Assembly: GCF_032191835.1 (NCBI RefSeq)
Contig: NC_083227.1
Coordinates: 40,424,001-40,488,000, forward strand
DNA: 64,000 nucleotides
Origin: Heteronotia binoei
Lineage: Eukaryota
Direction: 5' to 3'
Position numbers and translations under genes: made by a program. The notes under the pieces are model-generated. The model saw nothing but the letters and a program-made list of their open reading frames with translations, was not told the origin of the DNA and made no database searches. Positions 15,382 to 21,915 of the stretch are shown in pieces (position 1 is the first letter of the stretch; each line of letters opens with the position of its first letter).

Positions 15382-18300
15382 ATGCCTCAATCTACGGACT
15401 CACATCTTAGCTTCTGGAACGTCTCATTTACAAACTGTGGCCTTCGGACATTCAAAGGTAACAATAAGAAGATACTGCTATTTGTGACTTTCTCCCCAAA
15501 TGTGTGTACTGTATGCTTCAAGGGTGTTTTCTGGTCCCTGCACCTGATCAGCCATCCTCCTTGTTTTGCTATTGTTGCTGCCCTGAGGGACAGAGTTGCC
15601 ATTCTTGGCAGTTCAAGTCTTTCCTCAGGGCCTCTGGAACCTCATTCTCTTCCTAGGGAGTAGAAGAAGACCCTGTTGGGGGCAGCAAGAAGACAACTAG
15701 ATAGGATAGTGTGGTTAGCACCCTCTCACCTGTTAAGTGTCATTTCTTGTCTGTCTCCAGATTGCTACTCTCAGTGCAATTTCCCCCTTCTTCTCAGAAG
15801 TGCCACACTCAGTCTTACCCTCTCTCTCTGCTAGAGATGTAGTTAGAAACCTCTCTCTCTCCCTCCTCTTTCCTATCAAGTATATTAGTTCCTAAATAAA
15901 CCTTTATCTACTCTTTAATCAGGTTGTGCACCATTGCTGTGTTAATTACTCTGCCAACATGCAGAAAGGGAGAAGGGGAACTCAGTGGATATGTATGATG
16001 AAAGTGATGGAAAACACACATGCGTATTAGGCCTTTGTTTTCTAGGCTCTTTCTAATCTATAACAAACACCTTCTTGGCTCTCAAAACAATATGGGGTCT
16101 GCCAATACAGAATCAACAAAGACAGCAGGGCATTGTACAGACTAGTGCGTAATTTAGCAGTAATCTGTATGCAGGGGGAACCGAGGTGTTAAAAACCTTG
16201 CCCTGTTTTCAACTATGAAAAGTTATAAAGCCTGCATTTGATAATGGGGAATTGGTGCAGGGCAGTGGCTAGCAAGTTGGCTGTGGATTTGAGAGATGCT
16301 GCCCACAATCCAGCCCACACCCCTGCATGGATTGCACTGTAGTGATTCACCGTACTGATTCTCTGAGACCAAAATAGCTGGGATTGAACATCTCGGTTGG
16401 AACAAGGATGCCTAATCGATCTGGTTAGGCCGCATCACCTAATGTGAGTCATGGCTAAATTGTTTAATTTTTTAACTGTTTTAATTGTTTTAAACTGGTT
16501 TGACTGCTCTACTATGCTGAAGCCACCCTGAGCCCATTATGAGAAAGGGTGGCCTATAAACCAACAAAAATAAATAATAAATTAATAAATAATTACACTC
16601 ATTACGTCCTTGGACAGTGTCAGATTTTGAGGGCTGTGGTGCAAAACATCTGCAGTGGACCTGAGAATTACCTTGCACTTGGGGGGGGCATGGGGGCAGG
16701 ATGCTATAACATCACTGGGGAAAGACTTGAACATCAACAAAGTTGTGTACCCAGAAGAAGCATCACACAATGCCCCTGCTAGGTATGCAACTGGAAGTAA
16801 CATCAGAACAGAGGGAAAGAACAAGAGCTTGAGTAAAAAAAATAATATGGTTTAAAAAATCCTTCTTGAACTGAGGTTATGACCAGAAACAGGCATTCAG
16901 AAGAGTAAATGGAGTTCTTGCTTCAGGAAGGTGGCTTCTAAACTTTAAAAAATATATTAGCTGATGTCCCCATTTTGGGAGCTCTAGTCCACAAAATACT
17001 ATGTTGGAATAAAACCTTGCTAGTCTTAATTCTGTTTATTTTTGCTGTAACCAAGGAGCACAGGTGCTCTCTGGATATGTAACAATACACAGAGAATAAA
17101 ACACACTGGAGCATGACAACAGGGTGACAATTGTTTTGCTGGTTAGGAGGAAATTATGGATTGTTCCATTCATTTCCTTGAAGTTGTACCTGGTTCTATG
17201 GCAGTGAGGGTTGCCAGTCGCAAGGAGAAAAACTGTGCCTTTAAGAGTGGCTTGCTTACTGGGCTGTTATTTGCCAGGTGATTGTATTCACCTCCATTGC
17301 ATGAAAAACTTCAGTTCCTCATTCCCATACATTAAGGCTCTATTAAATGGACATGACTTCTTTTTTCTCCAGGCAGCTGGCAACTCTAATAGCAATCTCA
17401 TATAGCACCCTGAGGAGTATTTTATGGATATCTTTTTACATTGTTGAACTTAGTTTTATGCTGTTTTTATGCACTGGCTTGTTTTACTATTTATAATTTC
17501 ATATTTGTTGTTTTTAAAGTAACATTTTTTTTTATTTGTGAGCTGTCTCGGGCAGTTCTCTGAAGAAAAAAGGTAAAGGTAGTCCCCTATGCAAGCACCA
17601 GTCATTTCCGACTCTGGGGTGATGTCGCATCACGTTTTCACAGCATGACTTTTTACGGAGTGGTTTGCCATTGTCTTCCCCAGTCATCTACACTTCCCCC
17701 CACCCCCCAGCAAGCAGGGTACTCATTTTACTGACCTTGGAAGGAGGGAAGGCTGAGTCAACCTTGAGCCAGCCACCTGAACCCAGCTTTCACTGGGATT
17801 AAACTCAGGTCATGAGCAGAGAGCTTGGATTGCAGTACTACAGCTTTACCACTCTGTGCCACGGGGCTGCTTTCTCTGAAGAAGGGGTATATAAATTAAA
17901 GAAAGAAACGTTGCTAGAACCACTTTATGCTCACATGTGAGGTTTTTCATTGCTGACTCTTCTGTGTCCCTCATCAGCGGTCTTCATCATCCTGTGGCTA
18001 TCATTATGTCTTCCTGCTGAGTGTGAAGGCGCCAAAAAGGTCTCAGCATCCATGATTAAACAGTGGAGGAAAAACTACAAAAGTAAGGATAGACTCATTA
18101 TGAGGGGGGGGAGGGGAAATGGGTTGCAGCAGCAGAAGTCTCGCTACTCTATATTTGGGGCTGTGGCTTAATGGTAGAGCATCTGCTTGGCAAGGGGAAG
18201 CTCCCAGGTTCAATCCCTGCAGTCTCCAGTTAAAGAATTGGAGTGATGTGAAAGATCTCTGCCTTGGGAGACCGTGGAGAGCCCCCATTCAATCAGAGTA

Positions 18301-21300: not shown

Positions 21301-21915
21301 GAGCCTAGTACAGTATTGATCTAAATAAGTTTTGCAGTTGGATGAAAACTTGGTTGAGTGTGTCCTCCCTCCAAGGATATGATTCTGCCTCTGACTCTGC
21401 AACGTTTTCTCTCTTTCTGCCTCACAGCCAAAGTGACTTTTGATCCCAACACAGCATATCCATGGTTCATCGTATCTGCAAACAAAACTTACGTGGAATC
21501 AGGAGACAGACGCCAAAATGTGCCAGACAATCCTGAACGATTCAATAACACTCCTGCTTTGCTGGGCCACCCTGGATTTACATCCGGGAAGCTTTACTGG
21601 GAGGTGGAGTACGGAGACCAGAGGGAGTGGGCAGTGGGGGTGGCCCTCGAGCGTGTGGACAGGAAGGTCTATCTCAGGCTTAGTCCAGAGGAGGGCATTT
21701 GGCAAAAGGGCCTCTGGTGGCTTCGAGCCCTGGAAAATCGTTCCCATGCACTTCCCGTACGCCCTGGGATCATTGGGATATTTTTGAATTACAAAGCAGG
21801 TACAGTGGCCTTTTACATACAGGGGAAACTGATTCTGAAAAGAGCCTCTTTCAACAGGGAGAAAGTGTTTCCTTTCTTCTATCTGGGTGGAGGTGTTCAT
21901 CTCAAATTAATATAA
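15382..21915 (+). CDS. Ohanin/vespryn-like secreted PRY-SPRY (B30.2) protein, ~222 aa
   Basis: Coding exons 15382-15457 (gtcaccATG; ends aag|gtaaca, phase 1), 17978-18082 (tcatcag| AVFIILWLSLCLPAECEG..QWRKNYK |gtaagg, phase 1/1) and 21428-21915 (long pyrimidine tract, ctcacag|; KVTFDPNTAYP..PDNPERF..YGDQREWAVG..RKVYLRLSPEEGIWQKGLWWLRALE..PFFYLGGGVHLKLI*). The joined CDS is 669 bp and open. The motifs YGxQREWAVG and IWQKGLWWLR are recalled as vespryn-family hallmarks. The last exon is high confidence; the first coding exon is moderate. Confidence 0.8.
15674..15959. mobile_element. Possible solo LTR in intron 1 of the vespryn-like gene
   Basis: TGTTGG(GG)CAG...CTGCCAACA termini with an internal AATAAA; no TSD recovered. 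Confidence 0.4.
17568..17870 (-). mobile_element. Sauria SINE
   Basis: Reverse copy of the 14178 family; TSD ttctctgaagaa. Confidence 0.85.
19118..20365. repeat. Minisatellite-rich transposon-derived region (~200-bp units in both orientations, then ~35-bp tandem units)
   Basis: cattataccctatgggccattgaaatcaat at ~19268 and ~19471; related reverse units 19680-20040; ccagatgccagctctccagccctgcc repeats 20140-20365. Confidence 0.65.
20910..21117 (+). mobile_element. CR1 LINE 3' end
   Basis: ttggactagatgaccctggaggtcccttccaactctatgattctatga terminal motif; further fragments at ~24268-24765 and ~52375-52488. Confidence 0.85.

Follow-up and report, generated by a model that had tools for sequence, protein, structure and literature searches.

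The subject of this report is a vespryn gene of the gecko Heteronotia binoei that lies within a window of 64,000 nucleotides (nt) on contig NC_083227.1 (RefSeq assembly GCF_032191835.1, forward-strand positions 40,424,001 to 40,488,000; G000:C5:40424001-40488000), and gene coordinates below follow the numbering of this window. Snake vespryns, whose family includes ohanin, a minor venom protein, have been detected as proteins in venom (PMC4566206). The coding part of the gecko gene consists of three GT-AG exons on the plus strand, of 76, 105 and 488 nt, which join into one open frame of 669 nt, or 222 codons and a stop. The first coding exon (15361 to 15457) begins behind an acceptor at 15359-15360 and has its ATG at 15382; its coding piece (15382-15457, 76 nt, donor GTAACA) supplies 25 codons plus 1 nt and encodes a long, non-hydrophobic leader. 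Since its own acceptor stands 21 nt before the ATG, this is an internal exon. The second coding exon (17978 to 18082, 105 nt, flanked by AG/GTAAGG) is symmetric, phase 1-1, and encodes a hydrophobic region (h-region), a predicted cleavage region and a short basic linker; it is conserved in lizard, snake and tuatara orthologues. The last coding exon (21428 to 21915, 488 nt including the stop) encodes a complete PRY-SPRY (B30.2) domain of the vespryn clade, which has no Cys and carries the sequons NKT, NNT and NRS, as an initial annotation made from the letters of this DNA had stated. Pfam finds PRY (E 7e-19) and SPRY (E 3e-15) in the 222-residue protein and nothing else, in keeping with the same annotation's description of a bare B30.2 domain that has no RING, B-box or Ig domain.

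The exons, splice sites, phases (1 and 1) and length proposed there all agree with the RefSeq record. XP_060095244.1 (vespryn-like isoform X1, 222 residues) contains all three exon translations without a mismatch, at residues 1, 27 and 62; the last exon is 100% identical to a RefSeq protein of Heteronotia binoei, and the X1 model and the gene in the window have the same total length and do not differ in the coding part. A second model, XP_060095245.1 (thaicobrin-like isoform X2, 187 residues), is the same gene without exon 2. Two of seven listed RNA runs (one study, contigs) contain 0.61 and 0.35 of the words sampled from the last exon and its 3' flank, which is not taken as evidence of expression.

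Matches at 51-78% identity are vespryn-, ohanin- or thaicobrin-like or unnamed B30.2-only proteins of geckos, other lizards, snakes, tuatara and turtles, and TRIMs and butyrophilins reach at most 47% identity to the window domain. The best solved relatives, the B30.2 domains of TRIM21, TRIM7 and BTN3A1, belong to the same domain family (E 4e-32 to 1e-22). In a tree of 87 domains (79 of 197 proteins plus 8 genomic domains; LG+G4, no mixture model), the window domain falls in a gecko clade of 7 rows (support 97/97), which is nested in a lepidosaur vespryn clade of lizards, snakes and tuatara (27 rows, 98/97) that a single branch sets apart in 96% of bootstrap trees; the lepidosaur clade groups in turn with 8 turtle rows at 100/100. 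The neighbouring TRIM and BTN domains of the locus all fall outside the vespryn clade, and the 87-domain tree gives no resolved sister to the whole vespryn clade that would mark a closest TRIM or BTN parent. No bird, crocodile or mammal orthologue appears among the 120 listed of 332 profile hits, and none of 245 domains in 143 further representatives is of vespryn type, which is weak evidence as the library was clustered at 50%. Two Anolis and Lacerta proteins named 'thaicobrin-like' (P0135, P0136) group with TRIM7-like domains rather than with vespryns, and this name, when it comes from automatic annotation, is therefore unreliable.

Some of the sequence motifs that the initial annotation named as characteristic do separate vespryns from their relatives. 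The QREWAVG-type motif occurs in 68 of 73 vespryn rows and 1 of 110 non-vespryn rows, and the IWxxGxWW-type motif in 71 of 73 and 0 of 110, respectively, whereas PDNPERF does not discriminate, PxNPxRF being present in 63 of the 73 and 87 of the 110; the split between the two sets was made by a vespryn-built profile and is thus partly circular, and rows of 170-190 bits as well as four partial or split vespryn-like rows were excluded. The snake vespryns ohanin, thaicobrin and vespryn-21 share the clade, the order of leader, h-region and PRY-SPRY, and the diagnostic motifs with the gecko protein, at 45-49% identity over the alignment. The gecko protein differs from them in its lack of a domain Cys, its three sequons, and the absence of a dibasic site and of a Met at the h-region.

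It could be supposed that a TRIM or butyrophilin gene simply ends in this last exon and that the small exons are chance matches, given that B30.2 last exons of this size are normal in such genes and that the genome contains 92 matches. The initial annotation had named two observations that would speak for such an origin, namely placement of the domain with TRIM or BTN sequences and the joining of 21428 to upstream coiled-coil or Ig exons. The domain sits in the vespryn clade, however, and the genome sequence over 61 kb upstream of the last exon holds no RING, coiled-coil or Ig exon on the plus strand. Moreover, the small exons and their splice sites are kept in a second gene copy, described below, and in orthologues, and none of 38 longer hits is a RING- or Ig-fused protein with a vespryn-type domain (only two vespryn models there exceed 47%; weak evidence). 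TRIM and BTN B30.2 domains are cytosolic and fused to RING/B-box/coiled-coil or to Ig/transmembrane parts, whereas the gecko protein contains no RING, B-box or coiled coil of a TRIM E3 ligase, nor the Ig domain of a butyrophilin, and its N-terminal parts bear no likeness to BTN linkers. The probability left to a TRIM or butyrophilin end is close to nil. The gene is almost certainly an intact gecko orthologue of snake vespryn (ohanin/thaicobrin), and its claimed orthology to venom vespryns is supported by best hits, tree and synteny shared with other lizards.

The hydrophobic stretch of exon 2 covers about 14 residues, with a hydropathy of 2.9 over 11 residues, and is followed by small and polar residues. 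It aligns with the h-region of the snake precursors, and mature thaicobrin starts just after the aligned segment. Cleavage at ECEG/A, as suggested in the initial annotation, survives as a candidate, though as one of several, the mature N-terminus of thaicobrin aligning six residues further on. A Met at the start of the h-region is found in 0 of 16 lizard rows (one unparsed) versus 8 of 18 snake rows, for which reason the long leader is likely ancestral; as no lizard row has this Met, translation would start in the first coding exon. A 30-residue 'pre-signal' of uncertain meaning has been noted in king-cobra vespryn (PMC4566206), and we suggest that it represents the ancestral start. Exon 2 would then form the h-region of a long signal peptide that directs the protein into the secretory path, where its three sequons could be glycosylated. 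Judged on these features of the sequence, the protein is quite probably secreted.

Several points weigh against this reading. The h-region starts late, at residue 26, and could also be a membrane anchor; the AlphaFold model draws a single helix over residues 20-40, at low confidence; coral-snake vespryn transcripts have been said to lack signal peptides (PMC5488037); and both splice junctions, like the form that skips exon 2, rest on RefSeq models and conservation. The gene might accordingly yield an uncleaved, membrane-bound product or mostly a cytosolic skip form, which would serve as a decoy or a partner for the neighbouring TRIM and butyrophilin domains. Omission of exon 2 leaves the frame intact and would result in a cytosolic product resembling the turtle proteins, which have no hydrophobic segment; RefSeq carries such an isoform in X2, a Varanus model (P0072) also lacks exon 2, and 25 residues precede the h-region. 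We nevertheless consider an anchored or mainly cytosolic product unlikely, in view of the shortness of the hydrophobic stretch and the small and polar residues behind it, the position of the thaicobrin mature end and the three sequons of the domain.

Ohanin itself is a protein of approximately 12 kDa that is made from a precursor in which the SPRY domain is complete only with the C-terminal propeptide (PMC4566206, PMC5384570, PMC5488037, PMC6266455, PMC3017861, PMC6062510, PMC8813856). In the AlphaFold model of the gecko protein (mean predicted local distance difference test, pLDDT, of 82), a confident beta-rich domain with pLDDT mostly over 90 includes at 161-170, the place of the cut in the snake precursor, a loop of low confidence, and five more strands lie beyond it. 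Behind the WW motif, tuatara and 11 of 16 turtle rows carry a dibasic motif, which is missing from all 7 named gecko genes, as had been observed for the present one, and from several snake rows. Its presence in tuatara and turtles means that the motif is not a venom innovation; the site is ancestral and has no counterpart in geckos. Taken strictly as the mark of a venom vespryn, the dibasic propeptide site is lacking in the gecko, although it is a weak mark given its distribution in snakes, turtles and tuatara. Because the gecko loop that corresponds to the cut in ohanin carries no dibasic site, the protein likely remains a whole beta-sandwich, and the likely product is thus a whole, glycosylated, secreted PRY-SPRY domain.

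The turtle proteins offer a view of how exon 2 came about. Turtle vespryn- or thaicobrin-like proteins fall in the same 100/100 clade and begin with 25 residues that align without offset to the gecko exon-1 peptide but, unlike the gecko protein, have no hydrophobic segment, and most of them (11 of 16 rows) keep the RR motif. With the segment defined as an 11-residue hydropathy of at least 1.9, and after removal from each set of two rows that have no N-terminus, it is present in 51 of 57 lepidosaur rows versus 0 of 14 turtle rows; the six lepidosaur rows that lack it comprise the skip isoform, the short second-copy model and four other models. Anchored at the junction, 11 lepidosaur exon-1 peptides match 4 turtle N-termini when in register and not otherwise, with 0 of 2000 column permutations scoring as high; in the profile version of this comparison one shuffle gave an outlying high score. 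Both exon-1 peptides and turtle N-termini also resemble those linkers of TRIMs that the PRY exon follows directly (10 and 1 of 2000 permutations as high), but do not resemble the linkers of BTNs (555 and 542 of 2000). Because the five TRIM linker rows were picked by eye and the profile-profile tests are weaker (hhalign probability below 1% for exon 1 against TRIM linkers; 3 of 60 shuffles for turtle against TRIM, a weak test), exon 1 is likely, rather than shown to be, the relic of a TRIM linker exon.

It is established that all outgroup B30.2 domains are cytosolic, so that the gain of a phase 1-1 exon before the tuatara/squamate split is the simplest history. Secretion was thus likely acquired by insertion of this exon in lepidosaurs, long before venom, as far as the compared sequences tell; loss of the exon in turtles, which are known here from protein rows, is a possible alternative. 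As sources for the signal exon, neither a butyrophilin transmembrane exon nor a TRIM linker finds support (39 of 60 and 17 of 60 column shuffles scored as high), and a BLAST extension to a turtle BTN isoform looks compositional. The 70% C+T that might suggest an old polypyrimidine tract is already expected from the coded residues. The top listings of our literature searches, in which subscription papers are not covered, contained no paper on turtle vespryns or on the gain of a signal exon.

Within the window, a block at 11272 to 11430 on the plus strand, with a TATA-like site at 11306-11312 and a strong donor after 11404, is almost identical in the second gene copy, other duplicated non-coding blocks averaging 80%; we infer that it represents an upstream non-coding first exon with its putative promoter. 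Two ATTAAA hexamers on the plus strand, at 22065 and 22162 (22065 to 22167), are candidate poly(A) signals. Upstream, the minus strand carries the IgV and IgC exons of a butyrophilin (1988 to 3597; Pfam V-set and butyrophilin C2-set_3), which is transcribed away from the vespryn gene and has its B30.2 exon upstream of the window. Downstream of vespryn lie an H1-like frame, remains of a long interspersed nuclear element (LINE) and a head-to-head pair of genes, each with RING, B-box, coiled-coil and B30.2 parts and a long acidic insert of the kind typical of TRIM41. The gene does therefore lie among butyrophilins and TRIMs, as initially annotated.

The left arm of an inverted duplication, with vespryn on the plus and a TRIM41-like gene on the minus strand, extends from 11159 to 50321 (self-BLAST blocks of 71-92% identity); a 550-nt spacer near 50600 separates it from the right arm, which spans 50872 to about 84672, beyond the end of the window, and carries a second vespryn. 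This copy (G000:C5:40501410-40505881, or L006:3410-7881, minus strand) is 78% identical in the domain and has three open exons, with both small exons flanked by AG/GT. Its RefSeq model, XP_060094754.1 (176 residues), leaves out both small exons even though the genome has them open, from which the second copy appears to be mis-modelled. The ratio of nonsynonymous to synonymous substitution rates (dN/dS) is 0.66 between the two vespryn domains (dS 0.18) and 0.20 between the TRIM41 domains of the same duplication (dS 0.20).

Much of the setting has been described before: the gene is annotated in RefSeq, and the locus appears with the same accession in a 2025 preprint on the harbiTRIM locus (PMC12262214). 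That work covers thirteen squamate genomes with TRIMs, butyrophilins and PRY-SPRY-only proteins 'reminiscent of thaicobrin'. Its orphan PRY-SPRY genes include the same gecko accession beside the same neighbours (BTN and two listed 'T41' ligases), and XP_060095244.1 is labelled 'thaicobrin_left_of_BTN' in its supplementary tree. The preprint's 'psOnly left of BTN' and 'thaicobrin' genes match by accession the vespryn records of six other lizard species, the corresponding rows of our tree being from Lacerta, Podarcis, Hemicordylus, Anolis carolinensis, two Sceloporus and Pogona. The orthologues of other lizards lie 'left of BTN' or 'right of RACK1', and small nucleolar RNAs, sought as a marker of RACK1, are absent from 144 kb. 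The second gecko copy is not among the 54 labels of the supplementary tree, and the parts of the preprint drawn on here contain no discussion of secretion, a signal exon, turtles or that copy.

Vespryn expression in a non-venomous lizard, which the initial annotation thought might already be known, was reported in 2014: transcripts were described from leopard gecko, royal python and rough green snake, in skin and scent glands, by authors who doubt a venom role (10.1101/006031). The gene, gecko expression and the locus are thus on record. An ohanin-like toxin or oral-gland defensive protein in the gecko could be argued from orthology to ohanin, whose effects in mice are hypolocomotion and pain (PMC5488037). 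This is very improbable, as the leopard-gecko transcripts come from skin and scent gland, with salivary gland not listed among the tissues, the gene also occurs in tuatara and turtles, and the dibasic site is found in 0 of 7 named gecko genes; unlike snake vespryns, gecko vespryn is not a venom-gland product in the published gecko data (10.1101/006031). Our best overall reading, which we hold to be probable, is of an intact, stand-alone PRY-SPRY vespryn orthologue beside a butyrophilin and two TRIM41-like genes, whose likely product is a binding protein that skin and scent glands secrete in a non-venom role.

The harbiTRIMs at the locus are antiviral (PMC12262214), and analogy with their PRY-SPRY domains would make recognition of microbial or viral proteins at body surfaces the most likely single role, a defence function to which we nevertheless give somewhat less than an even chance. 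Scent-gland signalling ranks next: the protein may be secreted for chemical communication or as a structural part of scent- or cloacal-gland secretion. The scent gland is the only tissue shared by all four species with vespryn transcripts (10.1101/006031), and fast divergence of the two copies also fits signalling proteins, but transcripts occur in skin or salivary gland as well (10.1101/006031), and PRY-SPRY domains of the neighbouring TRIMs bind proteins (PMC12262214), which leaves signalling a possibility of lesser standing. As regards surface defence, neighbourhood alone is no proof of function, binding and defence being analogy, and a dN/dS below 1 from one pair is compatible with relaxed constraint as well as with selection.

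The gene and locus by themselves add little. What this analysis contributes beyond them is the second copy with open signal exons, the contrast with turtles and the likely exon gain, and the ancestral dibasic site. Secretion of vespryn would thereby date to the lepidosaur ancestor, with the gain of one symmetric exon as its likely mechanism, a comparative by-product of modest value to specialists in venom and reptile immunity. More tentatively, and with doubt, vespryn may have begun as a cytosolic TRIM fragment (linker relic plus PRY-SPRY, as in turtles), received its signal exon in the tuatara/squamate ancestor and become a secreted PRY-SPRY recognition protein, with exon skipping as a switch back to the cytosol; it would form the extracellular arm of the antiviral harbiTRIM locus, later drawn into snake venom. 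If the protein is truly a secreted PRY-SPRY pathogen binder, a venom-related gene would acquire a concrete ancestral job.

A number of minor observations concern the surrounding DNA. The RING/B-box exons of the two TRIM41-like genes, at 48992-50050 (minus) and 51165-52223 (plus), are near-identical (dS 0.002; about 0.2 in the other exons), reflecting either recent gene conversion near the inverted-repeat axis or an assembly artefact. H1-like open frames at 25936-26982 (plus) and near G000:C5:40498900-40499717 (plus) occupy mirror positions, one per arm, on the same strand and are about 35% alike; a histone 3' stem-loop follows the second. Turtle histone H1-like proteins share one 90% cluster with turtle vespryn-like proteins, without a common domain; a merged gene model may lie behind this, in which case the two genes would be neighbours in turtles too. 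Frameshifted pieces of LINE reverse transcriptase and endonuclease at 29740-34229 (plus) and 12457-12987 (minus) are confined to the left arm. A 276-nt stretch at 8994-9269 matches its own reverse complement at 88% and is likely a small inverted-repeat element, and low-scoring heads resembling transfer RNA (tRNA) at 14797, 18157, 23811, 25238 and 42389 are likely short interspersed elements. Three high-scoring tRNA genes (Val, Val, Lys) lie just past the window end, the same listing giving L005:9307, L007:7835 and L007:8917. Major histocompatibility complex (MHC) class I matches are found on the same contig at 6-14.5 Mb (42 of 44 matches), about 26 Mb from the locus, which therefore belongs to the MHC chromosome and not to the core MHC. 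Finally, B30.2 exons cluster on this contig (G000:C5) at 19.1-20.8, 30-31, 34 and 39.7-40.8 Mb, and many of those at 19.1-20.2 Mb are repeated with identical scores approximately 494 kb apart, suggesting a recent segmental or assembly duplicate.

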